From Dehalococcoidia bacterium (GTDB lineage Bacteria > Chloroflexota > Dehalococcoidia > Lucifugimonadales > UBA3495), in assembly GCA_034423575.1 (NCBI GenBank), contig DAOUIF010000036.1, positions 9,563 to 73,562 on the forward strand: a DNA stretch of 64,000 nt, in the 5' to 3' direction. A program made the position numbers and the translations under genes. Position 1 is the stretch's first letter, and every line of letters starts with the position of its first letter. The notes under the pieces are model-generated. The model did no database searches, was not told the DNA's origin, and worked only from the letters and a program-made list of their open reading frames with translations. Of this stretch, positions 4,467 through 63,311 are shown in pieces.

Positions 4467-5678
4467 ATGGTCGATTACGCATCCCTCTTTTCCATCAATC
4501 TGCCCCGCTCAGTGGCCTCTCCGCCCGGATCGGACGCGTCGGTAAGGTACGTATTCTCGATTACCAACGCGGTGCCGGAGGTGGTCGACGCTGACCAATA
4601 CCTGGCCGCCATCCGGACTGGACTGGAAACCAACGGTGGAGCGTCGCTGGCAGGCTATCCGCCCCCGGGCGGCCACGTGGGACTGAGGGAAATGATCGCG
4701 GAGCGCCTGGCAGCCAACCGCGGTTATCAGGTCTCCCCCAACGATGTGTTCATCTCGGACGGGGCTGGCGGCGCCATCGCCATCGTCCTGGAATCCTTCA
4801 TCAACCCGGGCGACGCCGTCCTGGTGGAGGAATTCACCTATATGGGCAGCCTGCGCATGATGATGGAACGCGGCGCGGAGCCGGTCCATGTCCCTTGCGA
4901 TGGCGATGGAATGTTGCCTGACGCCCTGGAAGACGCCCTGGCATCGCTGGAAAGCGCGGGGCGACGGGCCAAATTCGTGTGGACGATACCGGTGTACCAG
5001 AACCCCCTGGGTTTCACTGTGCCCGAGGCACGGCGTCGGGAGATTCTGGAGGTTGCCCAGAAGTACGGCGTTCCGGTGATGGAAAACGAGTCCTACGCCG
5101 ACTTCCGCATCGACGGCGACCCGTTGCCGCGAGCCATGTCCGGCATCAGCGATCAGGGCGACGTGTTCTACGTTTCGTCATTCACCAAGCTTCTGGGATG
5201 CGGGCTTCGGGTCGGGTTCGGCGTGCTCCCGCCGGGGGTCAAAGACGCGCTGCCGCAGGTCAACGCGGAGAACCTGCCGCGCCGGAGTGTGAGCCACCTC
5301 GCTACCACCATGGTCTACGAATATATGCGGGCGCACGAGGCGGAGCATATCGAGGCCGTCCGGCGAGCGCTCCTGGCGAGGCGCGATGCGATGATCGGAG
5401 CGCTGGAGGACAACTTCCCGTCCTTCTGCGAATGGACCCATCCCCACGGCGGCATGATGATGTTCGTGAAGCTGCCAGAAAACGCCGATACCTGGTCGAC
5501 GCTGGCCAAGGCCACCGCGCGCGACGTCAAATACAATCCGGGTGGCATGTTCCGGTCGGATCGCGGGCGCAACAACCACCTGCGCCTCACCTACAGTCAC
5601 AACTCGCCCGACGAAATACGGGATGGAGTGGCTCGGCTGGCGGAGCTCTTCCGGGAGGAAGGATATTTCGAGGGCTGA
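4467..5678 (+). CDS. PLP-dependent aminotransferase (class I/II fold, 2-aminoadipate/aromatic type)
   Basis: GGGAGG SD at 4455-4460. GYPPPGGHVGLREMIAERL, VLVEEFTYMG and SSFTKLLGCGLRVGF (PLP-lysine context) fit the fold. Confidence 0.75.
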   Translation: MVDYASLFSINLPRSVASPPGSDASVRYVFSITNAVPEVVDADQYLAAIRTGLETNGGASLAGYPPPGGHVGLREMIAERLAANRGYQVSPNDVFISDGAGGAIAIVLESFINPGDAVLVEEFTYMGSLRMMMERGAEPVHVPCDGDGMLPDALEDALASLESAGRRAKFVWTIPVYQNPLGFTVPEARRREILEVAQKYGVPVMENESYADFRIDGDPLPRAMSGISDQGDVFYVSSFTKLLGCGLRVGFGVLPPGVKDALPQVNAENLPRRSVSHLATTMVYEYMRAHEAEHIEAVRRALLARRDAMIGALEDNFPSFCEWTHPHGGMMMFVKLPENADTWSTLAKATARDVKYNPGGMFRSDRGRNNHLRLTYSHNSPDEIRDGVARLAELFREEGYFEG

Positions 5679-5745
5679 TCTGCGTTCGAATATAGCCGTC
5701 CGCATACAACAATCTCTCCAACATAGGCAAGCCGGGGGTGCTGCG

Positions 5746-9577: not shown

Positions 9578-10801
9578 CTAGTCGCCGACGGCTTCGGCGG
9601 TGGTCGACTTTAGACGCTCGGGCCACCACGGGTCGTCATATTCGTTGAAGAGACCCTTCATGTGGGGCATCACTTCATTGGCGAACAGGTCAGTGTTCTT
9701 CCGTACCAGTTCAGGCGGCATGCTTCCAATCTGGAGCAACACCATGAGGTGTCCGATACGGAGCATCTCGCAGGCCTCGGTTAGCTTGCGCCGGACCGTC
9801 TCCGGGCTCCCGCCGATGACATGGCCCTGCTCGATATAGTCTTTCCAGCTGTTCTCCTGGGCGGTGCGGTGCGCCTCTTCGCCCATCTGCGGGCGCAGGG
9901 ATTTGCGGATGGACTCCAGCGATCGATAACCGGGAGATTCGGCGAAGGGCGGGTACACCCGCAGCATCTTCTCGTAGAAATATTTCACGTGTTGCTCGTA
10001 ATCTTTTTCCGCCTGCTCGTCAGTCTCCGAAACGCAAACCAACTGCAAAAATCCCAAGCGGTGGGGGTTGTCATCGACTCCACGCTCGGCAACTCGCTCC
10101 CAATAGCCCTTGACGATGTTGTGGCCGCGCAGATAGCCGTAGTAGGACAGGTAGCAATACACGTAGTCCCGATCCAGCACCCAGTCCCAAGTCTCCAGGC
10201 TGCCGGACCCGGGGATCCACACCGGCGGGTGAGGCTCCTGCATCGGACGCGGCCAGATGCTGATGTAGCGCAGCTTGTTGTACTTGCCGTTGAAAATCGT
10301 CGGCTGGTGCTGGGTCCAGGCCTGCATGATCACGTCGTGCGCTTCGGTATGGCGGTCGCGCAACGTGATGGGCACCTGGCCGTAGGAGAACGTCGTGTCC
10401 ATTGCGGTTCCCACCGGGAATCCGGCTACCAGACGGCCGTTGGAAATGACATCGAGCATCGCCATCTCCTCCGCCACGCGCACGGGCGGGTTGTACAGGG
10501 CAAGGCTGTTGCCCAATACGATCACAGCGCCGTTGTTTGTGGAGTTCGCCAGCACCGAAGCGATCAGATTGGGCGATGGCATGATGCCGTATGCATTGTT
10601 GTGGTGCTCGTTGACGCAGATGCCGTCGAACCCGACCTCGTCGGCGTAGCGCAACTGGTCGATGTACTGAGCGTAGTATTCGTTGCCCTTGGCCGGGTCA
10701 AAGTTTTCGTTGGGCAGGTCTACCCACGCCGAGTGGTGTTGCTGGGCGAAATCGTCCGGCAGGTCCTGGTATGGCATGAGGTGGAAAAATGAGACTTTCA
10801 T
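9578..10801 (-). CDS. LLM-class flavin-dependent oxidoreductase
   Basis: MKVSFFHLMPYQDLPDDF..YADEVGFDGICVNEHHNNAYGIMPSPNLIASVLA..GRLVAGFPVGT is a typical luciferase-like monooxygenase family sequence. Confidence 0.8.
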   Translation of the reverse strand: MKVSFFHLMPYQDLPDDFAQQHHSAWVDLPNENFDPAKGNEYYAQYIDQLRYADEVGFDGICVNEHHNNAYGIMPSPNLIASVLANSTNNGAVIVLGNSLALYNPPVRVAEEMAMLDVISNGRLVAGFPVGTAMDTTFSYGQVPITLRDRHTEAHDVIMQAWTQHQPTIFNGKYNKLRYISIWPRPMQEPHPPVWIPGSGSLETWDWVLDRDYVYCYLSYYGYLRGHNIVKGYWERVAERGVDDNPHRLGFLQLVCVSETDEQAEKDYEQHVKYFYEKMLRVYPPFAESPGYRSLESIRKSLRPQMGEEAHRTAQENSWKDYIEQGHVIGGSPETVRRKLTEACEMLRIGHLMVLLQIGSMPPELVRKNTDLFANEVMPHMKGLFNEYDDPWWPERLKSTTAEAVGD

Positions 10802-33335: not shown

Positions 33336-33664
33336 CTGCCAACCTCTTTGCAGGTAGCGCTTTCGCTGCCGCGTCGTGCCGAAACGATTATTCGCTAATG
33401 ATATTACTGCACTCATTATAACGCCGATTTCCACAATCCGACACCGGGGTCGTCACCCTAGTCGTCGCGCTACCCACCCCGCGCGTTACCGGATCGCAAT
33501 CAGCCCGTGGCATCCGAAAAGACGTGTGAGGCGACCCGGTGCTCCGACTGGAGGTCCGGGATTCCCTCGCATCCTCGGGAAAATCTCCCCCTGTGGTAAA
33601 CTGGCCGCCGATTTTAGGCTCGAGCGTTACCGGCCGCAGTGTAGCGCTCCAGGACAAGACTGGA

Positions 33665-35722
33665 ATGGTTCCCCCCGATTCGCTTTTTGGCGGCATCCCC
33701 GTATGGGTTGGCGTCTACGTTCTAACAGCCCTCACGCTTGGCGTTGCCGGATATGTCGTGTACCACCGCGTATTCCGGCTGGTACTGCAGGGCCTTCCGG
33801 TCGCCCGGTTCGACAGGCCGATGACCCGGCTGTTGGGAGCAGCAGGGATCGTCCTGGGGCAGCGCAAGGTGCTGCAACGGGTGGGCCGATTGGACCCGCG
33901 CTCGAGGAGCATAGATCTGGCCGGATTGGGGCACGCCGCCATCTTCTGGGGCTTCTTGTCATTCAGCTTGTCGTACCTGGTCTTCATTTTCGGCGGGTCC
34001 ATCTGGCATCCGCTGGGAGAGACCATACTCACCAGGACCGGGGTGCTGGTCTACAGCATCTACTTGGATATCTTCGCGGCGGTCATCCTGGTTGCGCTCA
34101 GTTGGGCACTGTTCCGCCGTTGGATCGCCCAGCCCCACCGGCTGAGTTTTGACTTAACGCGCAAAGGCGAGTCGGTGGTCATCGTCGGACTGACCGCTGG
34201 CCTGATGGTCGCGACCTTGCTGGTGCACTCCTTCTACGTGGCGTCCGGCGGGGCAGGTCCAGAGGCTCGCGTATTCATCGGCGCGGCTATCGGCAATTGG
34301 TTCAGTGGTATGGGAATGTCGCCAGCCACCGCCGGCGCGCTCCAGGCGATCTTCTGGTGGGTGCACCTGCTAATCGTACTTGGCTTTGGGCTCTACGTCC
34401 CCTTCTCCAAGCACATCCACATGGTAGCCGCTCCGCTGAACGCCTTCTTCCGGAACTTGGAGCCCCGGGGCACTTTGGCAACCATGGACCTGGAAACCGT
34501 CGAGCGGTTCGGGGCGTCGCGGGTGCAGGACTTCACCTGGAAAGAGCTGCTGGACGGATACGCGTGCGCGGTATGCGGCAGGTGCACCGACGCCTGTCCC
34601 GCGCACACCACGGGCAAGGTGCTCTCGCCCATGCACATCGTGGAGAACCTCAAGGAGCACATGATCGCCATCGGGCACCAAGGCGCGCGCAACGCTGAGC
34701 ATGTGGAGCCCATGCCACTGATCGACGGCGCGATCCCCGAGCAAGCGGTGTGGGACTGCGTATCTTGCGGGGCGTGCATGGAGGAATGCCCCGTCGTGGT
34801 CGAGCATGTCCCCACCATCATCGACATGCGCCGCAGCCTGGTGCTGGAGGAATCGCGCATACCCGAGACGGGCATGAACGCCCTGTTGAGCTTGGAGCAG
34901 CGTGGACACCCGTGGCGTGGCACGACCTTTGCCCGCACCGACTGGGCGGAAGGCCTGGGCGTCCCAACCATGGCGGAAAAACCCGACGCCGAGGTGCTTT
35001 TCTGGGTTGGCTGCACGGGCGCTCTGGAACAACGCAGTCAGGGCGTCGCGCGTTCGATGGTCAAGGTGCTGAAGTCGGCGGGCGTGGATTTCGCCATCCT
35101 GGGAGACGAAGAGAGCTGCACCGGCGACCCGGCCCGGCGCATGGGCAACGAGTACCTGTTCCAGATCATGGCGCAGCAAAACGTAGAAGTGATGAACAGT
35201 TACGATGTGAAGACCGTTGTCACCATCTGCCCGCACTGTTTCAACACCATGAAGAACGAGTATCCACAGTTCGGCGGCGACTACGAGGTGCTGCACTACA
35301 GCCAATTCGTGGACGGGCTTATTCGAGACGGCAGGATCAAGCCGGTCAAGATGATGGACGTGTCGGTGGCCTACCACGACTCGTGCTACCTGGGCCGTCA
35401 CAACGGGGTTTACGACGAGCCGCGCAACGTGGCCAAAGCCATCCCCGGACTGAAACTGTTGGAGATGGCGCCCCGATGCCGGGAGCGCGGCTTCTGCTGT
35501 GGCGCCGGTGGCGGCCACATGTGGATCGAGGAGAGCCAGGGCGAACGCATCAACCACGCGCGCACCGACCACTTCCTTGAGACCCAGGCCGACACGGTGG
35601 GCGTGTCCTGCCCGTTCTGTCTGCAGATGATGACCGAGGGCATCCAATCCAAAGGACACGCCGAGAGCAAGGACGCGCGCGACGTGCTGGAAATACTGGC
35701 CGACAGCCTGGGCGACGATTAG
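33665..35722 (+). CDS. Membrane-bound Fe-S oxidoreductase: N-terminal NarI/DsrM-like polytopic domain fused to an HdrD/GlpC-like 2x[4Fe-4S] plus two CCG domains
   Basis: ORF 33539..35722; start taken as ATG 33665. About 6 N-terminal TM segments, CAVCGRCTDACP and CVSCGACMEECP ferredoxin motifs, and CCG-type motifs CPHCFNTMKNEY and CCGAGGGHMW. Confidence 0.75.
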   Translation: MVPPDSLFGGIPVWVGVYVLTALTLGVAGYVVYHRVFRLVLQGLPVARFDRPMTRLLGAAGIVLGQRKVLQRVGRLDPRSRSIDLAGLGHAAIFWGFLSFSLSYLVFIFGGSIWHPLGETILTRTGVLVYSIYLDIFAAVILVALSWALFRRWIAQPHRLSFDLTRKGESVVIVGLTAGLMVATLLVHSFYVASGGAGPEARVFIGAAIGNWFSGMGMSPATAGALQAIFWWVHLLIVLGFGLYVPFSKHIHMVAAPLNAFFRNLEPRGTLATMDLETVERFGASRVQDFTWKELLDGYACAVCGRCTDACPAHTTGKVLSPMHIVENLKEHMIAIGHQGARNAEHVEPMPLIDGAIPEQAVWDCVSCGACMEECPVVVEHVPTIIDMRRSLVLEESRIPETGMNALLSLEQRGHPWRGTTFARTDWAEGLGVPTMAEKPDAEVLFWVGCTGALEQRSQGVARSMVKVLKSAGVDFAILGDEESCTGDPARRMGNEYLFQIMAQQNVEVMNSYDVKTVVTICPHCFNTMKNEYPQFGGDYEVLHYSQFVDGLIRDGRIKPVKMMDVSVAYHDSCYLGRHNGVYDEPRNVAKAIPGLKLLEMAPRCRERGFCCGAGGGHMWIEESQGERINHARTDHFLETQADTVGVSCPFCLQMMTEGIQSKGHAESKDARDVLEILADSLGDD

Positions 35723-35901: not shown

Positions 35902-36702
35902 ATGTTCATGGACATTATGGAACGTCGGTTGCTTTTTCAACCCCAACCGGTATCCGACGCCCTGCCGACGGACCTGGGATTGGAATTCGAAGAGACGTGG
36001 TGTCAGTCGGAACGCGGCCATCAGTTGCAGTGCTGGTTTGTGCCCGGGGACCGTCGCACCGACCTGACCTGGATGTGGTTTGGCGGGGCAGGCGGCAATT
36101 TGAGCCTCCGGGTTGGCGAGTTTGCTGCGGTGCGGAAACACACCGGCGCAAATATTTTCGGGTTCGATTACCGAGGTTTCGGCAACAGCCGGGGAAAAGC
36201 AACCGTGCGTAACACCGCCGCCGATGCGCGGGCTGCTCTGGCTCATCTTCAGCGAACCTATGGATCTGATCGAGCTAACACCCTGTTCATGGGGATATCG
36301 ATGGGCGCCGCCGTGTCGATACGGTTGGCCGCCGAAACCTGGTCCCCGCTGGCCATAGCCCTGGTCGCGCCCTTCGCCTCCCTGAGTGACATGGGTCGGC
36401 TGCTCTATCCTACCCTGACCTGGCGGGGACGGCTGATCGGCAATCGCTACAATTCGGCGGCTCTCGTGGATCGCATCGACTGTCCATTACTCATACTTCA
36501 CGGAACGGACGACGAACTGGTGCCGCTGTCGCAGGGGCGCAAATTGTACGACGCAGCTCGGGGGCCAAAACGGCTGCTCACCATCAATGCTGCCGGCCAC
36601 ATGAACGTGGGCGACTACCCTGAATTTTGGGAAGGGTTGTGTGCCTGGATGGACGAGTCGGTCTTGATCGATCGGGACCCTGGCTCGACCCGCCGGGCTT
36701 AA
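35902..36702 (+). CDS. Alpha/beta hydrolase fold protein
   Basis: FGFDYRGFGNSRG, nucleophile elbow GISMGAA, and LLILHGTDDELVP. Confidence 0.75.
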   Translation: MFMDIMERRLLFQPQPVSDALPTDLGLEFEETWCQSERGHQLQCWFVPGDRRTDLTWMWFGGAGGNLSLRVGEFAAVRKHTGANIFGFDYRGFGNSRGKATVRNTAADARAALAHLQRTYGSDRANTLFMGISMGAAVSIRLAAETWSPLAIALVAPFASLSDMGRLLYPTLTWRGRLIGNRYNSAALVDRIDCPLLILHGTDDELVPLSQGRKLYDAARGPKRLLTINAAGHMNVGDYPEFWEGLCAWMDESVLIDRDPGSTRRA

Positions 36703-36729
36703 TCTCCCGCTTTGTTCCCCGGTCCGACA

Positions 36730-36758
36730 TTGCGTTGCCCGGAGGATTGGCCTATCAT
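36730..36758 (+). promoter_or_regulatory. Candidate promoter of the SelW-like gene
   Basis: TTGCGT (36730-36735), a 17-nt spacer, then TATCAT (36753-36758), about 45 nt upstream of ATG 36806. Confidence 0.4.
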
Positions 36759-36805
36759 CCGCCGCAACGGGCGTACCGCACACGGCGACGCAAGGGAGGG
36801 AAACC

Positions 36806-37075
36806 ATGGCTCAACGGCCCGACGTCAAGCGCATGGAAATCGAAATCGTTTACTGTTGGGATTGAGGACACGCCGGACGCGCGGCCTGGATGGCCAGCGA
36901 AGCATTGACCCGCACCGGCGACAACATATCGACGTTCAAACTGACCCCCGGAGATCACGGCAAGTTTGACATCCTGATCGACGGTGAATTGGTGGGCGAA
37001 CACAAGCACACCCCTGATGCCCACCTGTTCCCGGACCTGCAGGACCTCATGGCGGCAATCAACGATCGGATGTAA
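36806..37075 (+). CDS. SelW/Rdx-family thioredoxin-fold protein with in-frame TGA at 36863-36865; candidate selenocysteine U20 in a C-x-x-U motif
   Basis: The track shows only 36890..37075 (61 aa). The same frame extends upstream through one TGA to ATG 36806 (AAGGGAGGG SD 5 nt upstream): MAQRPDVKRMEIEIVYCWD-TGA-GHAGRAAWMASEALTRTGDNISTFKLTPGDHGKFDILIDGELVGEHKH. This fits the Rdx pattern I.YCxxU....RA...A..L......L.PG..G.F.v..DGeL. Confidence 0.65.
36880..36899 (+). promoter_or_regulatory. Candidate bacterial SECIS stem-loop downstream of the SelW-like TGA
   Basis: CGC-GGCC / UGGAU loop / GGCC-A-GCG is a 7-bp stem with a bulged A. The loop G residues are 26-27 nt from the U of UGA. Folded by eye. 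Confidence 0.35.
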
Positions 37076-37093
37076 CCCGGATTTGCAATCGCC

Positions 37094-37136
37094 GCCCGGA
37101 TTTCCGCATCACGCGGACGATCCGGGCGCTTTTTTG
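37094..37136 (+). terminator. Intrinsic terminator after the SelW-like gene
   Basis: GCCCGGAT (37094-37101) pairs with ATCCGGGC (37120-37127), with an inner CCGC/GCGG stem, followed by gcTTTTTTg. Confidence 0.7.
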
Positions 37137-37139
37137 TCC

Positions 37140-37439
37140 TTAGAACCCGCTCATCACTTCGATCTGGTAATCCAGGATCTCCAGGTCAGGGCGAACCTCG
37201 CTCACGAATTGCACCACATCGTCGATCAGCGACCTGGTCTGATCGGCGCTGACGCCAACGCAGGACACGGCAAGGGTCACGCTCTGCCACGCATTCCCGT
37301 CGGCTCCAGCATCCTGGGCGACCGAAACGTTGAAACGGGCCCGAATCCGCGATATCAGGCTCCGAGCAGCTTGCCTTCGGGTCTTCAGGCTGCGACTTTC
37401 GGGCACGCGGAGACTTATGTGGGCCACGGCGACGTGCAT
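37140..37439 (-). CDS. DUF503 (YlxP-like) family protein
   Basis: MHVAVAHISLRVPESRSLKTRRQAARSLISRIRARFNVSVAQ is the typical DUF503 opening. Confidence 0.65.
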   Translation of the reverse strand: MHVAVAHISLRVPESRSLKTRRQAARSLISRIRARFNVSVAQDAGADGNAWQSVTLAVSCVGVSADQTRSLIDDVVQFVSEVRPDLEILDYQIEVMSGF

Positions 37440-37584
37440 GGATCGATTACCAGGGCGGGGCGTCGTGAAAATGACGGCAGGGTGTAATTGGGCCGTCGCT
37501 GACGTTTGAGATTTGCCAGAAGCGTGCGGCCAACGGCGACAAACACGGGCGTCTAACGATCATTCGCACCCGCAGGCGCCGGTA

Positions 37585-51417: not shown

Positions 51418-52653
51418 TCACACCGGCAGGATCGGCGGCGCTTCTTCCGGCAGCGTTACCTCACGCAATGAGAGGTGGCTGCCGTCGGTGAACCAGGGGT
51501 TGCGCGGGTCGCGGGATGGCAGCAGCACGGTGGCCGTTCCCGGAGCGGTGACCTCGCCGCGCTGGTTCTCGGCCCAGATGTCCACATCCACCAGCGCGTT
51601 GCCCTGGTGAATGTACTTCCGCGCCACACGGCCCTTGCAGAACTGGGTGTCGCCATAGACGTTGAACCGCCGCGTCTCCACTCGGAGCCGCTTGAGGAAG
51701 GCGTCGTCGCCCATCCAGTTGGTCATCAGGGTTCCCAGCCAGGACACCCGCTGCGGGCCGTAATCGTACGCGCCGGGCACACCCACGGCCTCGGCCACCG
51801 AGTCGCGCAGGTGTCCGATCCCGGTGTATTCCAGGCCGCCGCCCGACTCCGGGTTCCTGAAGAAGTGGTTGGGATGGCGCATGGCCTCTCGGAGCAGCAC
51901 ACCGTGGGCGCTGGAACGGCCCGTGCCGACCAGGAAAGCGCTCACGTCCTGGAGAGAAAGCGGCCCGCGGACCACCGTGGGCAGTTCTTCCCCGATTTCA
52001 GTGTCCTCCCAGTAGCGGGGCTGCCCTCCACGCGCGTTCTCGTTGAGAACCTGCTCGTCGATCCGCGCCAGCTCGTCTTCAGTGTACTCGTGGCGCTTGG
52101 GCACGTCCGCGTACTTCCCGCGTTCGCGGGAGGCTCGACGTTGGTGGCGGGTACACCATCCAACGACGCGGGCAACCACCTCGTCGCGCTGGTTGGAATA
52201 GGTAGTCTCCACGTACTGGATGACCAGGCGCCCGGAATAGGCGCTCTGCTTTTCCTGGACGTCCAGGACCCGCTCGACGCAGTTCACCGCGTCGCCGGGC
52301 CGGAGCATGCGGAAAAACTCCCAATCGTTGCCGGCGAAGAACCCATGCACTCCCGGCAGTCCCCATCGGGTCCGGCCTGACCAGTGGCGCATGTAGGGAG
52401 CGCACGGGTGACCCACGACGCTGCCGTACTTGGAGTAAGCGGCGTATTCCTGGTCCCGGAACAGCGGGTTGGCGTCGCCGATCCCATTGACGAAATTCAG
52501 CATGGTGTCCAGCGTGGCCTGGCGCACGTACTGTTCGGTGCGCATCCGCACGCCGATCATGGCGCGGGCGGCGGCCAGAGCTTCGTCGGAGATGCCGCCC
52601 TCAACCTCGGGAAGGGTTTCAACTACCTGTTGCTGCGATTGCTGCTGGGTCAC
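51418..52653 (-). CDS. Double hot-dog (MaoC-like) acyl dehydratase / enoyl-CoA hydratase
   Basis: 411 aa. The N-terminal half resembles a MaoC_dehydrat_N/FAS1-like dehydratase (VNGIGDANPLFRDQEYA) and the C-terminal half is a second hot-dog-like half. It sits next to two CoA-transferases. Confidence 0.6.
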   Translation of the reverse strand: MTQQQSQQQVVETLPEVEGGISDEALAAARAMIGVRMRTEQYVRQATLDTMLNFVNGIGDANPLFRDQEYAAYSKYGSVVGHPCAPYMRHWSGRTRWGLPGVHGFFAGNDWEFFRMLRPGDAVNCVERVLDVQEKQSAYSGRLVIQYVETTYSNQRDEVVARVVGWCTRHQRRASRERGKYADVPKRHEYTEDELARIDEQVLNENARGGQPRYWEDTEIGEELPTVVRGPLSLQDVSAFLVGTGRSSAHGVLLREAMRHPNHFFRNPESGGGLEYTGIGHLRDSVAEAVGVPGAYDYGPQRVSWLGTLMTNWMGDDAFLKRLRVETRRFNVYGDTQFCKGRVARKYIHQGNALVDVDIWAENQRGEVTAPGTATVLLPSRDPRNPWFTDGSHLSLREVTLPEEAPPILPV

Positions 52654-52680
52654 TACGGTTCCACCTTTCTGACAAATGGG

Positions 52681-53025
52681 CTACAAACTGATTAACAAGC
52701 TCGACAAATGCAAACCGGTCAAGCACGCCATCTCGACGAACAGCCACGTCATCGGACCATTCACCAGCTCGCTACCGGAGATTTTATCTTTCGAAAGTAG
52801 CCGGCTCACTTTCTCGAGCAGCAAGAAATACGACATGACCGTCAGGGATATGAGAACAAATCTCGACACAGCGATCAGGCCAGCGATCAACCGGGCCGTC
52901 TGCAACTGTGGTTCCGCGACGGGCTGTTCATGAAATTGACCGAAAAGTCCGAAACCGATTGCCGCTGTAGCTATGGCCAAAATGCCGAGTGCTAACTGAT
53001 GACGGTCTGGAGCCCTTCCACTCAC
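52681..53025 (-). CDS. Small hypothetical membrane protein
   Basis: About three hydrophobic segments; GC is lower than the surroundings; a 4-nt ATGA overlap with the upstream small ORF. Confidence 0.4.
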   Translation of the reverse strand: MSGRAPDRHQLALGILAIATAAIGFGLFGQFHEQPVAEPQLQTARLIAGLIAVSRFVLISLTVMSYFLLLEKVSRLLSKDKISGSELVNGPMTWLFVEMACLTGLHLSSLLISL

Positions 53026-53300
53026 CGACCCGGTTCCCCGTCTTCATGCCTCCGCGACCGCCAATCAAGCCAGAAGCCATACAGAACGGCGCTCAATCCG
53101 CAAAGCGCCATGGTCAAACTCAAAGTAAACACAACCCACGCATCGGTGCTTCGCGAAACGATGCGCAAAACAAGGACGGACAAGATCAAAACCCAAATTC
53201 CGATCAGTAATGGAGCAATCCCGATGCGCCCGTAAAACTTTAGATTGCTGTGGTCTCTTGATCCGGTCAACTTGTCATCTCCAGCGCGCCGAGCCGACAC
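53022..53300 (-). CDS. Small hypothetical membrane protein
   Basis: Hydrophobic segments IGIAPLLIGIWVLILSVLVLRIV and VVFTLSLTMALCGLSAVLYGFWL. Confidence 0.4.
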   Translation of the reverse strand: MSARRAGDDKLTGSRDHSNLKFYGRIGIAPLLIGIWVLILSVLVLRIVSRSTDAWVVFTLSLTMALCGLSAVLYGFWLDWRSRRHEDGEPGR

Positions 53301-53318
53301 AACATCATGACGCTATCA

Positions 53319-54572
53319 CTAATATACCACCCGTTGCTCTTCCAACTGCGCCAGGTCGTCCTCGCTCAGCCCCAGATATCCGCAGAGCACTTCCCGATTG
53401 TGTTCGCCCAACAACGGGGCGTGACGCCGCACCCGGGACGGGGACTTGCTCAGGTTCCACATCAGGTTGAACACCGGCTCAGCGCCCAGCGCTGGGTGTT
53501 CCGTGTCGCGGTACAGGCCCCTGGCCATAAAGTGCGGGTGGAATAGCCGTTCTTCGGCGCCCAGCACCGGAGCCGCGGCCACCCCGTGCGATTGCAGAAG
53601 CTCGGTTATGGCGTCAGCCTCGTGTTCAGCCGTCCATCGGGATATGAGCGCATCCAGTTCGCGGCGGTGACGCTGGCGGCGGAATTGGCTAGCGAACCGG
53701 CCATCAGCCGCCCAGGACGGGGATCCCATGACCTGCACCAGCGCCCGCCATTCCCCTTCCGACCGGACCGCGATGGACACCCACTTGTCCTCGCCGGCGC
53801 ACGGGTAGTTGCCGTACGGCGCCATGGTCGGATCGTGGTTTCCACGGGTTTGAAGCGAGCGCCCGGTCATGGCTTGCTCCATGAGGCCAACGCCCTGGGT
53901 AACCACCGTCGCCCGCAACATGGACACGTCGATGTGTTGACCCTTGCCGGTCCGGTTGCGGTGGTACAACGCAGACGAAATCGCGAAAACGGCGTGCAGC
54001 GCCCCGCAAATATCACCAAACGCGTGCTTCAGGCCCAGGGGTCCCCCGCCCTCGTATCCCATCGTGCTGTCCAGGCCGGAAAGCGACCCGATGGACGGAG
54101 CATATGCGCGCAGGTCCCGAAGCGGCCCTTCCTGCCCCGTGGAGGAAATCGAGGCCATGATTATGTCAGGCTTGATCCCTCGCAGGGCCTCGTAACCCAG
54201 TCCCAGCCGCTCCATCACCCCCGGCGAGAAGTTCTCGATCACCACGTCGCAGCGGGAGGCAAGGTTCTTGGCCAACTCCACGGCTTCCGGCTCTGCAATG
54301 TTCAGCGTCACACTGAGCTTGCCCCGGTTCACGTTGTGGAACATCGGGTTCTGCTCCGGGTCGGGTTCGTCCCCAACGATAGGGCGCCCCATCCGCATGT
54401 AGTCCAAGCGTTGCCGGGTCTCAACCTTGATTACTTCAGCGCCCATATCCGCCAGGACCATGCCAGGCAGCGCGCCAGCCAGGACCCAGCCAAAGTCCAG
54501 CACGCGGTACCCGCTCAGTACGCCGGGCATCCCGTCGGCATAGGTGTCAGCGCCATTTAGCGGTTCAACCAT
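53319..54572 (-). CDS. Family III (CaiB/BaiF) CoA-transferase
   Basis: LSGYRVLDFGWVLAGALPGMVLADMGAEVIKVE and ENFSPGVMERLGLGYEAL. Start is ATG 54572 (the ORF is open to TTG 54581). Confidence 0.85.
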   Translation of the reverse strand: MVEPLNGADTYADGMPGVLSGYRVLDFGWVLAGALPGMVLADMGAEVIKVETRQRLDYMRMGRPIVGDEPDPEQNPMFHNVNRGKLSVTLNIAEPEAVELAKNLASRCDVVIENFSPGVMERLGLGYEALRGIKPDIIMASISSTGQEGPLRDLRAYAPSIGSLSGLDSTMGYEGGGPLGLKHAFGDICGALHAVFAISSALYHRNRTGKGQHIDVSMLRATVVTQGVGLMEQAMTGRSLQTRGNHDPTMAPYGNYPCAGEDKWVSIAVRSEGEWRALVQVMGSPSWAADGRFASQFRRQRHRRELDALISRWTAEHEADAITELLQSHGVAAAPVLGAEERLFHPHFMARGLYRDTEHPALGAEPVFNLMWNLSKSPSRVRRHAPLLGEHNREVLCGYLGLSEDDLAQLEEQRVVY

Positions 54573-54581
54573 GTTGCTCAA

Positions 54582-54842
54582 TCACCGTTGTTCACGAGGC
54601 GGGACGATCCATGCTGCCAGTGCCGGCATCACCGACAGCAGCGCTGCCGCCGCGATTTTTGTGTATCCCCCGCCGTAAACCAGGCTCAGCGTCCACAACA
54701 GTCCGAAGCAGATCGCGCCCACGATGATACCGGCGATGATTATGATCTCGGGCCGGTGGTTCTTCTTCATTGCGATCTGCCGGGCGATAAGGCAGCTGCC
54801 CAGAAAAACCACCACGCAGGCAATCGTGATACGGATCAGCAT
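54582..54842 (-). CDS. Small hypothetical membrane protein (86 aa, 3 predicted TM segments)
   Basis: MLIRITIACVVVFLGSCLIARQI..IIIIAGIIVGAICFGLLWTLSLVY..AAAALLSVMPALAAWIV. It is wedged between the two CoA-transferase genes. Confidence 0.45.
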   Translation of the reverse strand: MLIRITIACVVVFLGSCLIARQIAMKKNHRPEIIIIAGIIVGAICFGLLWTLSLVYGGGYTKIAAAALLSVMPALAAWIVPPREQR

Positions 54843-54906
54843 GGGTGACGGACGACAGCAATTGCGGGACTGTCGAAATGGCGAATCGTCATGCGAACGC
54901 GAACGT

Positions 54907-56112
54907 TCAAATGATCCCGGTCTGGTAAAGCTTTACCAGGTCCGCGGCGCTGTAGCCCAGCTCGTCACACAGAATGGCCCGGTTGTGCCGGCCCAGTGTT
55001 GGGGCCGGTGTGGACGCCGACACATCGGCATCGGACAGTCGATACGGCACGCCGGGGTAAGCTATCGGCCCAGTATCATCGCGCTCTATGACCACGAACA
55101 GGTCCTCCAGGGACGGATCCGTCCGCACTTCCTCATAGGTGCGCACGGGCGCCAGCGGGATCCGGTGTTCCAAGGCAATTTCCAGCAGTTCCGACTTGGT
55201 GTAATCAGCCAACCAGGCCTCCAGGTACCCATCCACTTCGTCCGCATAGAGGTTGTTCATGGCGGTGCGGTTGCGCAATCTCTGCTCCTGCGACCACTCC
55301 GGCATACCCATGATCTCGAGCAACCGCCGCCACTGGCGGCCCTCCGGCGAACCTACGAAGATGTGCCCGTCCTTGCAGCGCAGGATGCAGTTGGGGTACG
55401 GAAAATCCAGCGCGTGGTGCCCGGTGCGTCGAGTGACGCGCCATTCGTAGACCGCCATCAGGGCCTCCGGCCCGTTGTACAGGCCGGCCATCGTTTCCGC
55501 TTCGGCGATGTCGATGTGCTGGCCGCCGTGAGTGTCCCGGCCCAACAGCGCCATGACGATCGACGACGCGGCGGCCATCCCGGCGAAGTACCCGACCTCC
55601 GGTGTCCCGAATGTCAGCGGCTCACGTTCCGCTTCACCAAGCCCCTCACAGATCCCACCGGCCGCGGCGAGATTGATGTCGTAGGCCTTGTAGTCGCGCC
55701 ATGGGCCGGACTGGCCCCATGGGCTGATGCTTGCCATCACCAATCCAGGGTGATCGGCGGCGAGCAGGTCGTAATCCAATCCGAGCCGTTCCATGTCGGC
55801 CGGCGGCACATTGTGCACCACCACGTCGGACGTCGCCGCCAGTTGATGCAGGATTCCCCTGCCCGTGGGAGTCTCCAGGTTGGCGGTGATGCCTGCCTTG
55901 TTGGCGTTGAGGTAAAGATACAGACCGCTGCGCTCAGGGTGTGGAACATCGTCGGGCCACGGCCCGTAACGCCGAGCATCTTCACCTATTCCCGGACGCT
56001 CTATCTTGACGACGTCGGCGCCAGCATCGGCCAGCAACTTCCCGCAATAGGGCGCGGAAATCATCGAGCCGATTTCCAGGACGCGCAGGCCGGACAGCAA
56101 GGTATAGGTCAT
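54907..56112 (-). CDS. Family III (CaiB/BaiF) CoA-transferase
   Basis: ORF 54907..56205; start taken as ATG 56112 (MTYTLLSGLRVLEIGSMISAPYCGKLLADAGADVVKIE). Confidence 0.85.
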   Translation of the reverse strand: MTYTLLSGLRVLEIGSMISAPYCGKLLADAGADVVKIERPGIGEDARRYGPWPDDVPHPERSGLYLYLNANKAGITANLETPTGRGILHQLAATSDVVVHNVPPADMERLGLDYDLLAADHPGLVMASISPWGQSGPWRDYKAYDINLAAAGGICEGLGEAEREPLTFGTPEVGYFAGMAAASSIVMALLGRDTHGGQHIDIAEAETMAGLYNGPEALMAVYEWRVTRRTGHHALDFPYPNCILRCKDGHIFVGSPEGRQWRRLLEIMGMPEWSQEQRLRNRTAMNNLYADEVDGYLEAWLADYTKSELLEIALEHRIPLAPVRTYEEVRTDPSLEDLFVVIERDDTGPIAYPGVPYRLSDADVSASTPAPTLGRHNRAILCDELGYSAADLVKLYQTGII

Positions 56113-56345
56113 GGTATCAGGAGGAACCGGGAAGGCTGGGCGCAATGTTATCACAGGGTTAGCCAGGGTCAGGTGAGGAGCGGATCGTTCCAGGCACCAC
56201 GCCACCAGCGACCGCGGATGGTACGTGCTGCATCGCGCGTCAAGAACGCGATCCCGAAGTCGCGGCGCACAGAACGCGGACCGCCGCTATGTTAGACTTG
56301 CGCTCGAACGACGTACGCTCGAACCCAACTTGAAGGAGACGCATT

Positions 56346-58753: not shown

Positions 58754-59869
58754 ATGGCCACCAGCAACGGACGTCGCCCGGAACCGCGTTTCGACTGGTT
58801 TATACCCATCGATGGAGATGGCGATCGCGCCGGCACGGTCCGGGCGGACCGCCCACCAACCTTCGAGTACCTGCGGCAGGTGGCGGAAACTGCGGAGCAA
58901 CGCGGCTTCTACTCGATGCTCATTCCCACCCGCTTCGCCAACGGGCTTTTTTCAGAGGACGCTCCGCTGGCCGAGACCTGGACCACGGCCACCGCGCTGG
59001 CGGCAGTGACCACCAAAATCCGCTTCCTCGTGGCGGTCAGACCCGGGTTCATCGCGCTGGGATTGTTCGCCCAGATGGCCGCCGCGCTGCACCAGATATC
59101 AGGTGGACGCCTGGACATCAACATTGTGCCGGGCGGTATCCAGAATGACTTCGAGCGAGTGGGCGAGGTCAGTGACCACGCGACGCGCTACGAACGAGCG
59201 GAAGAGTTCATCCAGGCCTGCCGCGCCCTCTGGCAGGATCCACAACCGGTGACCTACTCCGGCGATTTCTACAAGCTGGCTGACGCTTACTGCGCGCCCG
59301 CGCCCGGCCAGGATGGACCCAAGTTCTACCTCGGTGGCGCCTCACCCCGCGCGCTGGGTCTGTCCGCCCGCCAGGCGGACGTGCACCTGGGCTGGATCGA
59401 ACCGCTGGAGGACACCGCCCAGCGCGTTTCTGATCTCAAGCAGCAGTTCGCCGGCACCGGCCGTCCCCTCACCCTCGGATTGCGCACTCACCTCGTCATT
59501 CGCGACCATGAACACGATGCCTGGCAAGCCGCCGGTCGTCTCATCGCCGACGCTGCGCCGGAGGTAAAGGCCCAACGGCAGTCCGCGATCGCGGGCACCC
59601 CTATGGTGGGTCAGCAGGCTCAGGCTCGTGAAGCAGAGGACCATCGCCTCGGGCCACACCTGTGGAACGGACTGTCGGAGGTCCGGGTGAACTGCGGCAG
59701 TGCGTTGGTCGGCACGCCGGAGCAGGTGGCCGACGAGTTGCTGGGCTATTGGCGATTGGGCATCGACGAGTTCATCCTCAGCGGGTTCCCCCACGTAGAA
59801 GAGTGCCACCGTGCGGCTGACGAACTCCTGCCGCTGGTCCGCGAGCGGATAGCTTCCGAAAACCGGTGA
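58754..59869 (+). CDS. LLM-class flavin-dependent monooxygenase (SsuD/SfnG-like)
   Basis: RFDWFIPIDGDGDR..YLRQVAETAEQRGFYSMLIPT..FLVAVRPGF..GGRLDINIVPGG. Confidence 0.8.
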   Translation: MATSNGRRPEPRFDWFIPIDGDGDRAGTVRADRPPTFEYLRQVAETAEQRGFYSMLIPTRFANGLFSEDAPLAETWTTATALAAVTTKIRFLVAVRPGFIALGLFAQMAAALHQISGGRLDINIVPGGIQNDFERVGEVSDHATRYERAEEFIQACRALWQDPQPVTYSGDFYKLADAYCAPAPGQDGPKFYLGGASPRALGLSARQADVHLGWIEPLEDTAQRVSDLKQQFAGTGRPLTLGLRTHLVIRDHEHDAWQAAGRLIADAAPEVKAQRQSAIAGTPMVGQQAQAREAEDHRLGPHLWNGLSEVRVNCGSALVGTPEQVADELLGYWRLGIDEFILSGFPHVEECHRAADELLPLVRERIASENR

Positions 59870-59888: not shown

Positions 59889-62800
59889 TTGGCGCCCGCG
59901 CCTGAAGATCCAGACTTGGACCGTAACTTCGCCCTGCTGCTCTGGCTCTTGCCCCGGCGGATCCGTTCCGCATGGGGCCTTTTGGCCGTAACCGCATTCG
60001 GCGTGCTGGCAGCGGTGACCATCATGGCGCTGGGGGCGATGTACTCCCAAGGGTTGGCCGAAGCCGGCTTGCGACACTCCCTGGCAATCACCTCCCCTAC
60101 GGTCATCAACACCCAGATTGTCGTGCGCAACCGCCCGTTGGGTCCGGAAGACTACACGTCGCTGCGCGCCGACATCGAGGGAATAATCGACCACAACGTG
60201 GACTATCTGAAGCGAGGTCAGGAACGCTACGCCAAGATGCTGCCCACGCTGCCCTTCGTACAGGTGGGCGCTCCTTACGGGATATCCGATGTTCCATTGG
60301 GCCGCCCGTTTTTCGTGACGGAGTTCCCTGAGCATTCGCGCCTGATTGAAGGCGCCTGGCCATCCCCCACGGTGGGAGCCGACGCGACGGCCTGCGTCAA
60401 TTTGGCCAATGGGTGCCCACAAATCGAGGGCGTGCTGGGCATCGACACCTCGCGCCTCATGGGCTGGGGAGTCGGCAAAGAAGCCTGGCTCATGGTCTTT
60501 CCGGGAAATGACGAAGAGCCCTCCGAATACATCGGGGTAAAAATCGTGGGCATTGCGGAACCCAACGATCCTCGCGAAGAGTACTGGATGGGTTCCGCGG
60601 ACTACTTCCGCATGGGTGACTGGGAAGGTCGACCGGTGGCGCCGATTTACGTCAACGAACAGGCTTTCTTCGACGGCATTGGCCAACCGTTCCCCACCCT
60701 GGTGGGCGACTACGGCTGGTTTCTGTACATCAACCCGGACGTCATTACCTCGTCAACAGTCCAGCAAACCCGCGACGACCTGACTGCCCTTGAAACGGAC
60801 ATCAACAGCCGCTTCCCCCGGTCGTACGTCCTCACCGGATTGGAAAACAGCCGCGGCACGGGCTTGTTGGCGACCTACCAACGGGAGCTCACGCTGGCGC
60901 GAGCGCCGTTGATCCTGTTCATTTCCCTGGTGGTGGTGGTCATCCTCTACTTCCTCGCTCTGGCCGTGGGGCTTTTGGCCGGCGCCCGCTCCGCCGAGTC
61001 CTCCATGTTGCGCAGCCGTGGCGCAAGCATAGGCCAGGTGGGCGGGCTGCTCGCGGTCGGCGAAGGGCTCATCGTCGTGGCCGCTACCCTCATCGGCCCG
61101 CTGCTGGCCTGGGGCATCGGCAGCCTGTTGCTGGTGGAAACCATAAACCCGGCGGCGCGCGCCGGAGCCGGAGAGGCTCCCCTGGAGGTATCCCTGTCCT
61201 GGCAGATGTACGCCATGGGCGCCGTCGGAGGTCTGTTGAGCCTGGCGGTTCTGACCGTTGCCGGTGGCAGCCTGGCCCGCCTGGGCATTCTGGATTTCCT
61301 GCGCGCCAGGGCCCGCCCGCCGTCCGCTCCGTGGTTGCAGCGCTACTACATCGACATCATCGCGGTGGTCGCCTTGGCTGTCCTGGTTTGGCAGATCCGC
61401 CAGCGGGGCGGCTTCGTGGAGAGCGAACTGACCGGCCGTGCCCCCGCATTGGACCCGACCCTGTTGCTGGCGCCTTCGGCTGCTCTGTTGACTCTGGCCT
61501 TCCTGTTACTCCGCGTGTTGCCGTGGCTGATGACGGGAACAGCCTGGATTTCACAGCAAATTGCGCCCGCGTGGGTAGGTCTTTCGTTGCGGAGAATGGC
61601 TCGGCATCCGCTGCCTTACGCGTCGCTTACGGTGGTCGTCACACTGGCGGCGGCCCTCGGCGTATTCGCGGGAACCTTTCAGACCACGCTGGCCCGCAGC
61701 GAGGCAGACCAGGCAAACCACAGTGTCGGCGGCGACATCACCCTGGGCGGCACCAGCTTTATCGGTCGCACCGAGCAGGAACGCGTCGACCAGCTTAAGT
61801 CCATAGACGGCGTTGAAGCCGTGTCCCCCATCATTCGGGAGCCAGTGGGATTCATCGACGGGCCGTTCCAGCGCGGGACGGTCCTCGGCGTGGATCCACT
61901 GACCATCGGGCAGGTCTCGTGGTGGCGCGAAGACTTTGTCGAAGGCGAGCCCACTCCCCTGGACACCCTCGTCGCGCCGCTGAGAAGGACGCTGTCTCCG
62001 GAAACCGCCGGCGTCGAGATACCCCAGGGAACCGAGCGGATCGGCGTCTGGGTCCGGCGCGACGACACGCCGACGGTCGGCGTGTCCGTGCCCCTGCCCA
62101 GTTACCGTCTGTGGCTGCGGATCGGCAGTGATCGCGGATATTATCGCAATCTCGAGTTGGGCATGCTGAGCCAACATCAAACCGGGTGGCACCACCTGAC
62201 CGCGCCCATGCCGGAAGAAAGCGTTACCGCACGAGCCGACGACCAATGGCGCGTGGTGTCCATCTTTATTTCTGGAGATTCGTTCGCCAGGACGCCTCCC
62301 GGAGGCCTCTCCTTCGATGGCGTCACGGCATATGGTCAGGACATACCACTGGGGGGTGAAGTGATCGAGGGCTTCGAGGAAATCGGTCCCTGGGTGCCGT
62401 TGCCTCAGACCGGAAACGTGCCCGATCGCACCGACCGGACGCCAGATGCCGCGCACACCGGCGACACCGGGCTTTCCATTACGTGGGAAGAGCCTTTGGG
62501 GCGCTCTCCTCGCGGCATCGTGATCCCGCCGGCTCCCCTGCCGTTGCCGGCAATCACCGGGCCCGGGTTCATCCCTGACCAGACCGTCAGGATCGCCGTG
62601 GATGGATACCTACTCCCCGCGCGGGTCACCAGCACCGTCAACCATTTCCCCACGCTGAGCACAAGGCGCTCCTTCGTGGTGGTGTCGGTTCACGAGTTGC
62701 GGGCCTGGCTGAACCAGGCGCCAGGCGCCCAACCGATCACTCCCGACGAATGGTGGTTCGACGTGGCCGAGGGCGCCGACCGGGAGCGAGTGGCCGATGA

Positions 62801-63311
62801 GATCCTGGACGTCGGTTACCGCCTGTCATTCCTGCGTGATCGCGACAGCGCGGTTGACCTGGCAACACGCAATCCGTTGGCGGGCGGAGCCTGGGACGCG
62901 TTAACTGGGATCGGTCTCGCTGCGCTGGCGTTGGCCGTGGCCCTGGCTTTGTGCGCCCACGCTGCGGTGGCCGTGCGCGAGCAGCGGGTCGACATGTCCG
63001 TCGGCGCGGCGCTCGGCATTCCCCAGTGGCAACGAATCGCGGGCCTGGCTTTGGAGCGGGCCGTCGTTGGCGTTCTGGGCATAGTGGTCGGGGGCCTGGC
63101 CGGCTGGGGGCTGGCGCGTTGGACCCTGGGCGAACTGGCCGGGAACGCGGCCGGAGGCTCCGTCACACCGCCGATCATTTTCGTGGCGGAAGGACCCTGG
63201 CTGGTGGCGACGTTCATCTGTCTCGTCGTCGCCGCGACCGCCGCAATTGGGCTCGCCGGTGCGGTGGCCCGACGATTGCGACCGCCGGAAGTGTTGAGAG
63301 AGGCGGAGTAA
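59889..63311 (+). CDS. Very large FtsX/MacB-type ABC transporter permease (about 1140 aa, two FtsX-like TM modules with large extracytoplasmic domains)
   Basis: N-terminal RRIRSAWGLLAVTAFGVLAAVTIMALGAMY, central and C-terminal clusters of TM helices (LILFISLVVVVILYFLALAVGLL and LAALALAVALALCAHAAVAV). The TTG start at 59889 is uncertain. Confidence 0.65.
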   Translation: MAPAPEDPDLDRNFALLLWLLPRRIRSAWGLLAVTAFGVLAAVTIMALGAMYSQGLAEAGLRHSLAITSPTVINTQIVVRNRPLGPEDYTSLRADIEGIIDHNVDYLKRGQERYAKMLPTLPFVQVGAPYGISDVPLGRPFFVTEFPEHSRLIEGAWPSPTVGADATACVNLANGCPQIEGVLGIDTSRLMGWGVGKEAWLMVFPGNDEEPSEYIGVKIVGIAEPNDPREEYWMGSADYFRMGDWEGRPVAPIYVNEQAFFDGIGQPFPTLVGDYGWFLYINPDVITSSTVQQTRDDLTALETDINSRFPRSYVLTGLENSRGTGLLATYQRELTLARAPLILFISLVVVVILYFLALAVGLLAGARSAESSMLRSRGASIGQVGGLLAVGEGLIVVAATLIGPLLAWGIGSLLLVETINPAARAGAGEAPLEVSLSWQMYAMGAVGGLLSLAVLTVAGGSLARLGILDFLRARARPPSAPWLQRYYIDIIAVVALAVLVWQIRQRGGFVESELTGRAPALDPTLLLAPSAALLTLAFLLLRVLPWLMTGTAWISQQIAPAWVGLSLRRMARHPLPYASLTVVVTLAAALGVFAGTFQTTLARSEADQANHSVGGDITLGGTSFIGRTEQERVDQLKSIDGVEAVSPIIREPVGFIDGPFQRGTVLGVDPLTIGQVSWWREDFVEGEPTPLDTLVAPLRRTLSPETAGVEIPQGTERIGVWVRRDDTPTVGVSVPLPSYRLWLRIGSDRGYYRNLELGMLSQHQTGWHHLTAPMPEESVTARADDQWRVVSIFISGDSFARTPPGGLSFDGVTAYGQDIPLGGEVIEGFEEIGPWVPLPQTGNVPDRTDRTPDAAHTGDTGLSITWEEPLGRSPRGIVIPPAPLPLPAITGPGFIPDQTVRIAVDGYLLPARVTSTVNHFPTLSTRRSFVVVSVHELRAWLNQAPGAQPITPDEWWFDVAEGADRERVADEILDVGYRLSFLRDRDSAVDLATRNPLAGGAWDALTGIGLAALALAVALALCAHAAVAVREQRVDMSVGAALGIPQWQRIAGLALERAVVGVLGIVVGGLAGWGLARWTLGELAGNAAGGSVTPPIIFVAEGPWLVATFICLVVAATAAIGLAGAVARRLRPPEVLREAE

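Follow-up and report, generated by a model that had tools for sequence, protein, structure and literature searches.

Identification of a probable selenocysteine-encoding gene hidden by an in-frame TGA

The window analysed here is a stretch of 64,000 nucleotides from a Dehalococcoidia bacterium (contig DAOUIF010000036.1, positions 9,563 to 73,562 of the forward strand), and a comparison of its sequence with those of related genomes indicates that positions 36806-37075 are very probably a genuine selenocysteine (Sec)-containing gene of the Rdx/SelW-like type. The sole in-frame TGA (36863-36865) shares its frame with an annotated open reading frame (ORF) of 61 amino acids (36890-37075), and reading through it gives a conceptual product of 89 amino acids, MAQRPDVKRMEIEIVYCWD-U-GHAGRAAWMASEAL...FPDLQDLMAAINDRM, with the redox site Cys17-Trp-Asp-Sec20. 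An initial annotation of the window, made from the letters alone, had extended this frame by 84 nt through the one TGA to an ATG at 36806 preceded at 5 nt by a strong Shine-Dalgarno (SD) sequence; the coordinates and the frame agree with ours, and the SD sequence can be read at the expected place (Table 1).

Profile searches were run on the read-through protein with U replaced by C. The product matched the whole of the Pfam Rdx profile (PF10262, positions 1-74 of 74) at 52 bits with a cut-off of 22.6, and scored 37.8 bits with NCBIfam TIGR02174 CXXU_selWTH (cut-off 34.2; positions 1-73 of 74), whereas the annotated 61-amino-acid ORF reached 24.2 bits with Pfam Rdx and covered positions 19-74 only. 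The Rdx (SelW/SelT/SelH) layout that the initial annotation had read in the longer product is therefore borne out by profile coverage, as is its statement that the shorter version lacks the redox motif. A match to NCBIfam NF041051 SelTWH_Campy spanned positions 1-69 of 70 (E = 3e-8) at 33.6 bits versus an equivalog cut-off of 88; by this score the window protein is related to, but lies outside, that Campylobacterota equivalog. Six solved bacterial 'selenoprotein W-related' proteins (2OKA, 2FA8, 2OBK, 3DEX, 2P0G and 2OJL) matched at E = 1e-8 to 8e-6.

A structure model was made for the orthologue P0003, which is 61 % identical to the window protein and has TGA at the equivalent codon. The AlphaFold2 model (predicted local distance difference test score 89.5; predicted template modelling score 0.79) has the Rdx-type topology b1-[CxxU loop]-a1-b2-b3-b4-a2, with its strands and helices at E6-12, H19-36, E37-44, E49-54, E57-63 and H74-91. 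C17-W-D-U20 stands directly after beta-1, in the loop before alpha-1. When the model was compared with the PDB using Foldseek, the top 21 matches were all bacterial SelW-related proteins with template modelling (TM) scores of 0.73-0.88; mouse SelW (2NPB) and thioredoxins ranked below these bacterial structures. The predicted product of the window gene is a redox protein with a thioredoxin fold and belongs to the Rdx (SelW/SelT/SelH) family.

Conservation of the TGA codon among orthologues

Orthologues were compared at 85 loci, made up of 80 Dehalococcoidia/SAR202 species genomes (one genome per species), four metagenome contigs and the window itself. The orthologous proteins, from about 80 species, are 62-98 % identical to the window protein. 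All 80 genome loci belong to Dehalococcoidia, SAR202 or Chloroflexota metagenome-assembled genomes (MAGs), and in each of them the tblastn match continues through the position of the stop. The codon is TGA in 85/85 loci, with no TAA, TAG or sense codon at any of them, and is embedded in the conserved motif (I/V/L)-Y-C-x-x-*-(G/R/K)-H-A. The 63-nt segment that begins at the TGA is present as 73 distinct sequences among the 85. Sponge-associated MAGs (Aplysina aerophoba bin87 and the 'RHO3' bin) are among the orthologue matches of highest rank.

The 11 codons upstream of the TGA vary in the manner of coding sequence: entropy at the three codon positions is 0.65/0.28/1.08 before the TGA versus 0.39/0.24/1.12 downstream, and Glu-7, Ile-6, Tyr-4 and Cys-3 (counted from the TGA) are invariant, yet each is written with two or three synonymous codons. 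In 79 of the 85 loci a start codon 15-19 codons upstream of the TGA has an SD core of 5 nt or more before it, compared with a single locus (1/85) in which an SD sequence precedes the internal ATG that serves as the annotated start. The initial annotation had proposed that orthologous loci be compared for a conserved codon at this position, which proves to be TGA throughout, and had named as damaging to its reading a scenario in which orthologues begin at the codon matching ATG 36890 and lack a coding signal upstream; that scenario is excluded by the upstream coding signal and by the distribution of SD sequences.

Public databases carry the shortened form of the gene. A search of 5.8 billion proteins returned 56 relatives, almost all of them annotated at 52-76 amino acids, cut at or just after the equivalent point and so deprived of the active site. 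Several are named 'predicted Rdx family selenoprotein' by JGI, and none of the database entries examined is annotated with the TGA read as Sec. Gene callers are the source of the 61-amino-acid ORF in the annotation track and in public protein databases, an artefact that starts at the conserved Met29 codon; gene finders cut the gene to this length because its active-site Sec is encoded by a UGA 'stop'.

Cysteine in distant homologues and apparent exceptions at the Sec codon

In the printed alignments to 2OKA and 2FA8 a Cys stands opposite the window TGA (YC-x-x-C). An exhaustive HMMER search with P0003 of 1.84 billion cluster representatives found 100 relatives; the full-length ones that were aligned, at about 23-38 % identity, are almost all YC-x-x-C-G with Cys at the Sec column, and no Cys form was found among these relatives above about 40 % identity. 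An alignment of this kind had been suggested in the initial annotation, and its outcome, with Cys at the U column in both solved structures and in almost all of the distant homologues aligned, is the pairing expected there.

A few close 'full-length' database entries show W, R or G at the Sec column. The W at the Sec site of P0003 was dismissed as a translation-table artefact: the contig DNA (L087, 138-416) has TGA, the gene under code 11 does not yield the database protein, and the entry was evidently made with a table in which TGA is Trp. 'Full-length' database homologues of selenoproteins can thus conceal a Sec codon, as P0003 shows. P0007, with GGA (Gly) at the Sec site, was considered as a functional sense-codon form and rejected as a pseudogene. 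The GGA variant is present in two assemblies, both metagenome contigs (L088, 1501-1830; L089). Its reading frame ends prematurely at a stop in codon 65, and W/R stand in place of the invariant F75/P76. It occupies the equivalent syntenic slot, where an inserted HigB-like toxin gene pair separates the hydrolase gene from the Rdx gene. The single lineage with GGA is an apparent natural experiment in which the Sec codon was lost and the gene decayed. P0085 and P0093, with R or G at the Sec site by translation, were likewise set aside; together with P0088 they look similarly degenerate, as read from the protein entries only.

A SECIS-like hairpin downstream of the TGA

Published criteria for bacterial Sec insertion sequence (bSECIS) elements comprise an apical loop of 3-9 nt, an upper stem of 4-16 bp, a G in the first two loop positions, a UGA-to-loop distance of 16-37 nt and a minimum free energy (MFE) of -7.5 kcal/mol or lower (PMC13188914). 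The hairpin at 36880-36899 lies within all of these bounds: it has a 7-bp stem with one bulge, a 5-nt loop UGGAU (G at position 2, followed by another G) and an MFE of -10.8 kcal/mol, with 21 nt between the UGA and the loop and with the loop Gs 25-26 nt from the U of the UGA. The initial annotation had drawn the same structure (7 bp, a bulged A, loop UGGAU, loop Gs about 26 nt after the UGA) with the same coordinates, and had suggested a SECIS model as a check; the fit to the published model is now joined by covariation among the orthologues. Their hairpins reach -7.5 kcal/mol or lower in 81/85 cases. The annotated start ATG (36890-36892) falls within the loop and closing pair of the window hairpin.

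The wobble bases of Ala+6 and Ala+10 (36883-36895; alignment columns 27 and 39) pair as G-C in 27 cases, U-A in 27 and C-G in nine, giving a covariation score that 0/500 shuffles reach. As a register control, the 3' arm was slid by 1-3 nt either way, and pairing dropped from about 90 % to 13-73 %. Ten apparent mismatches are absorbed by a 1-nt shift of the bulge, and the stem around UGGAU is kept in every sequence class. The wobble C36886 of Ala+7 (GCC), which closes the loop, is C in 81/81 sequences (0 bits of entropy), compared with third-position entropies of 0.90-1.95 bits at 15 other conserved four-fold-degenerate sites in the gene. Judged by these synonymous sites, the hairpin is under RNA-level selection beyond the constraint imposed by the protein.

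In orthologues with GCUGCC...GGCAGGC (e.g. L050 and L057), RNAfold favours a register shifted by one (columns 27-43), with stem UGCCUG/CAGGCG and loop GAUGG. Two alternative SECIS-compatible hairpins are possible in this part of the family.

A second probable selenoprotein gene and the evidence for Sec decoding

A hidden AhpC/TSA-Redoxin selenoprotein of 163 amino acids is encoded on the reverse strand of the same window (Table 1). With U replaced by C it scores 65 bits to AhpC/TSA-Redoxin, and its gene is divided by gene callers into pieces of 44 and 112 amino acids. The hairpin CGCGGC-AGUUG-GCCGCG follows 16 nt after its TGA, with a folding energy of -10.6 kcal/mol and a 5-nt loop that has G at position 2. 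Active Sec decoding is the best explanation for the finding, within 64 kb, of two unrelated redox genes with a UGA at the catalytic Cys and similar hairpins. The redoxin gene adjoins a formate-dehydrogenase-like molybdopterin gene (5542-8535, 929-997 amino acids) that is without an in-frame TGA.

TGA is an ordinary stop in 10/24 well-supported genes of the window, and a reassigned code is excluded on these grounds. JGI contig Ga0131736_1000005 (90.7 kb, sample 3300009935) matches the window at 99.96-100 % identity. SelA (COG1921) and SelB (COG3276) have been reported as enriched in sponge symbionts (Slaby et al., 2017; PMC5649159). In Table S4 of that study, the columns of which were identified via the header line, SAR202 bin87 (MPNC01) is listed with SelA = 3, SelB = 1 and SelD = 1, and SAR202 bins 90, 16, 22 and 127 have SelA, SelB and SelD all present (PMC5649159). 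Bin87 is also one of our orthologous loci (L010): its orthologue is 96 % identical to that of the window and has TGA at the Sec codon, and the neighbourhood is about 85 % nucleotide-identical between the window and these relatives.

Weighing the evidence and alternative explanations

Several observations weigh against a Sec-encoding gene with its SECIS element at 36880-36899. No SelA, SelB or SelD was found in the window or in about 10 kb on either side (about 84 kb, searched through the Pfam annotations of called genes and through uncovered gaps), and ARAGORN found no tRNA of any kind, hence no tRNA-Sec, in the window and 34 loci. Database look-up of a 523-amino-acid ORF at 54724 gave no record. 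The search for Sec machinery that the initial annotation had proposed thus came out negative around the locus and positive, from the published SelA, SelB and SelD of bin87, for a relative; the bin87 genes speak for the lineage and not for this exact genome, in which the machinery is presumed by extension from the relative. As sel genes commonly lie apart from the genes for selenoproteins, we take their absence near the locus as uninformative, not as negative. As regards the hairpin, the folding energy of the single sequence after the TGA is no better than that of shuffles (z = 0.15), so that support for it is comparative and not thermodynamic. The codons for the conserved peptide A-A-W-M-A take in the loop UGGAU and a large part of the stem, so that the invariance of both is partly protein constraint; two-sided covariation is seen at one stem pair only, and the pair types partly track clades, which means few independent compensatory events. 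An Rfam scan of the whole window at gathering thresholds matched no family, hence no curated SECIS or tRNA-Sec; Rfam covers bacterial SECIS elements poorly.

Gene callers give the annotated 61-amino-acid ORF as their model in almost all database entries, its ATG is conserved and its product narrowly passes the Rdx cut-off, but we consider it exceedingly improbable that this ORF is real and that the upstream 84 nt are a leader or a separate 19-codon upstream ORF ending at the TGA. Conservation of the ATG stems from the Met that it encodes in the helix motif A-A-W-M-A, and the codon falls in the hairpin loop; SD sequences mark the upstream start and not the internal one; and the upstream codons, coding in the same frame, supply positions 1-18 of the Rdx profile, so that the short product would be without beta-1 and the active site. 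Inactivation of a CxxC Rdx gene by a nonsense mutation from TGC or TGT to TGA would also leave one in-frame stop, which in a single sequence resembles a recent mutation, and a decayed copy is known in one lineage (L088). That true pseudogene differs: its Sec position reads GGA, it has one more stop, and invariant residues are replaced. At the 85 loci, by contrast, the TGA persists in about 80 species and is flanked on either side by sequence under purifying selection, the promoter, SD sequence and hairpin are conserved, and the 73 distinct sequences show that the loci are not assembly copies of one another. We give a pseudogene next to no credence.

Recoding of the UGA to a residue other than Sec, by near-cognate read-through (Trp, Cys or Arg) or by an alternative code (TGA as Trp or Gly), might be suggested by the W that at least one gene caller placed at the TGA of P0003 and by the failure to see Sec machinery on the parent contig. 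It is very improbable given the standard use of TGA as a stop in the window, the pairing of the codon with the catalytic Cys in CxxC homologues (the hallmark by which Sec is classically recognized), the SECIS-type hairpin under RNA-level selection 3' of the codon, and the SelA, SelB and SelD encoded by SAR202 bins, including one that bears an orthologue. A somewhat less remote alternative, though still an improbable one, accepts Sec and regards the hairpin as a by-product of coding for A-A-W-M-A, with the true SECIS elsewhere or of another form. TGG and ATG are the only codons for their amino acids and the loop is thus fixed by the protein; to this may be added the MFE that does not differ significantly from shuffles, the shifted register with loop GAUGG in some orthologues and RNAalifold, which retains only four pairs. 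Protein coding does not account for the fixed wobble C of Ala+7 where 15 other four-fold sites vary freely, nor for the GC/UA/CG covariation between the wobbles of Ala+6 and Ala+10; where only one side changes, the bulge shift compensates, and the spacing and loop fit the bSECIS model.

Proposed mechanism of decoding and catalysis

In the bacterial Sec pathway SelD makes selenophosphate, SelA converts Ser-tRNA(Sec) to Sec-tRNA(Sec), and SelB-GTP binds the SECIS and delivers Sec-tRNA(Sec) to the UGA. For a Sec-containing Rdx/SelW-like gene at this locus we propose that the UGA would not be read as a stop during translation, that the hairpin downstream of it would, in the manner of the classical bacterial pathway, bring SelB-GTP-Sec-tRNA(Sec) to the ribosome, and that Sec would be inserted at codon 20. 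By analogy with the Rdx family, the mature protein would cycle between the selenol/thiol form and an intramolecular selenenylsulfide (Cys17-Sec20), and would reduce a substrate by redox chemistry of the thiol-disulfide type.

Transcription unit and gene neighbourhood

The gene is a monocistronic, self-contained transcription unit with its own promoter, SD sequence and terminator (Table 1). A consensus promoter/terminator scanner run on 36400-37500 called neither a promoter nor a terminator. The promoter that the initial annotation had judged plausible is weak in the window, where it matches 8/12 consensus positions and was rejected by the scanner, but it is present and conserved: TTGnnn-N17-TATNAT occurs in 70 of 83 distinct orthologous upstream regions versus 4.7 % of shuffles. 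The conserved element has the form TTGnnn-N17-TAT(C/T/G)AT and sits about 45-55 nt 5' of the start codon; in many divergent orthologues the -35 box is a perfect TTGACA. Judging by its conservation upstream of the SelW-like gene, canonical promoters are recognizable in this Dehalococcoidia lineage. The strong terminator described in the initial annotation was upheld by direct folding (-31 kcal/mol, z = -3.99, 0/200 shuffles equally stable), a long stem and an inner loop having hidden it from the simple scanner. It may act bidirectionally, as the DUF503 gene converges on it from the reverse strand.

Table 1. Positions within the 64,000-nt window of the SelW-like gene, its signals and other features.
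Feature	Position	Strand	Remarks
Full SelW/Rdx-like selenoprotein gene (very probable)	36806..37075	+	89 amino acids + stop TAA (37073-37075)
Cys17 codon; Sec20 codon	36854-36856; 36863-36865	+	C-x-x-U motif
Predicted Sec-encoding TGA (U20)	36863..36865	+	TGA in 85/85 orthologous loci; aligns with second Cys of CxxC
Shine-Dalgarno sequence AAGGGAGGG	36792..36800	+	5-nt spacer to ATG 36806
Sigma-70-type promoter	36730..36758	+	-35 TTGCGT 36730-36735, 17-nt spacer, -10 TATCAT 36753-36758
Bacterial SECIS-like hairpin	36880..36899	+	stem 36880-36886/36892-36899, bulged A36896, apical loop UGGAU 36887-36891
Intrinsic terminator	37091..37135	+	long GC-rich hairpin, then U6
Hidden AhpC/TSA-Redoxin selenoprotein, 163 amino acids	8563-9054	-	motif FYRGVW-U-PYC, TGA 8922-8920
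HdrD/GlpC-like membrane Fe-S protein	33539-35722	+	two CCG domains, 4Fe-4S dicluster; two genes upstream of SelW-like gene
Collagen triple-helix repeat protein, 233 amino acids	26518-27219	+	Pfam Collagen 36.6 bits; position conserved in related contigs
SAR202-typical gene content	9578-10801 (-), 58754-59869 (+), 3083-4372 (+), 51418-56295, 59889-63311 and beyond		

The gene order around the SelW-like gene is alpha/beta-hydrolase, SelW-like, DUF503 (reverse strand), Rex and the ATP-synthase operon. This neighbourhood is conserved in 36-37 of 37 close-clade loci; at divergent loci the hydrolase gene was found in 34/43 and DUF503 in 29/43. The conserved neighbourhood suggests no specific partner. 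The HdrD-like gene is present within 3-kb flanks at 36/37 close-clade loci versus 20/43 divergent loci, and a functional link between the SelW-like gene and this Fe-S/CCG protein is not claimed given its detection in just 20 of the latter; a disulfide-reductase partnership is conceivable but unsupported. Elsewhere in the window there are several paralogues each of luciferase-like flavin monooxygenases and of family-III CoA-transferases, which are typical SAR202 content, as are two tandem FtsX-like permease genes of about 1140 amino acids each.

Significance and comparison with known Rdx proteins

Among the bacterial selenoprotein families of the Sargasso Sea data, that of the SelW-like CxxU proteins was the largest, with 48 genes, and in-frame SECIS elements of SelW-like genes were described in the same study in 2005 (Zhang and Gladyshev; PMC1088965). 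SelW-like bacterial selenoproteins have thus been known since 2005, and the window gene adds a systematically misannotated member; the kind of gene is ordinary and would not surprise specialists, and selenoprotein biology as known is unchanged. The practical value lies in correcting the annotation of truncated database entries. Together with the UxxC redoxin, the SelW-like gene indicates that Sec is used in the sponge-type SAR202 lineage, in keeping with the report (PMC5649159) that SelA and SelB are enriched among sponge symbionts. The 85-locus alignment presents a bacterial SECIS that overlaps the codons of a highly conserved peptide, so that synonymous sites alone reveal the RNA constraint, and could be used as a benchmark for selenoprotein and SECIS predictors.

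The SelW-like selenoproteins of marine metagenomes (PMC1088965; Global Ocean Sampling 2008, PMC2398784) resemble the window protein in being small (about 80-90 amino acids) Rdx proteins with CxxU after beta-1 and Sec encoded by UGA. Their genes share with it a SECIS in the coding region just downstream of the UGA with a G in a small apical loop, a marine and uncultured origin, and routine misannotation as a truncated ORF. Unlike them, the Dehalococcoidia/SAR202 subfamily has modest profile scores (52 bits with Pfam; 37.8 versus 34.2 with TIGR02174) and invariant histidines H22, H51, H66, H68 and H73, the codons of which lie within 36869-37024 and the first of which comes just after the Sec; it also differs from canonical Rdx proteins in an insertion of 2-3 residues before the FPD motif. 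The subfamily, as sampled, is confined to Dehalococcoidia/SAR202 and is Sec-containing at all 85 loci. It is an unlikely suggestion that these proteins, with CxxU, invariant histidines, the insertion and a gene placed as its own transcription unit between the hydrolase gene and the DUF503-Rex-ATP-synthase cluster, form a functionally distinct and obligately Sec-dependent Rdx subfamily. Were the histidines to surround the selenol, a new Rdx active-site chemistry (e.g. metal- or proton-relay-assisted) might be involved, possibly in redox sensing, and this would provide a first functional handle on the role of Rdx proteins in bacteria.

The solved bacterial Rdx proteins 2FA8 (Atu0228), 2OKA, 2OBK, 2OJL, 2P0G and 3DEX are alike in fold (TM 0.73-0.88), in end-to-end sequence alignment and in the position of the redox motif followed by an RAxW(M/L)AxEL helix. 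They differ in having CxxC, with Cys and not Sec, in the absence of the His-rich loop, and in an identity of 26-36 % in the Foldseek alignments. Mammalian selenoprotein W (2NPB), SelT, SelH and Rdx12/MIEN1 have the same thioredoxin-like b1-a1-b2-b3-b4-a2 arrangement with CxxU between b1 and a1, although mammalian SelW is distant (TM 0.62, 15 % identity). Eukaryotic Rdx genes have a SECIS with a kink-turn in the 3'-untranslated region and depend on SBP2/eEFSec, whereas the window gene has a predicted in-frame hairpin of the SelB type.

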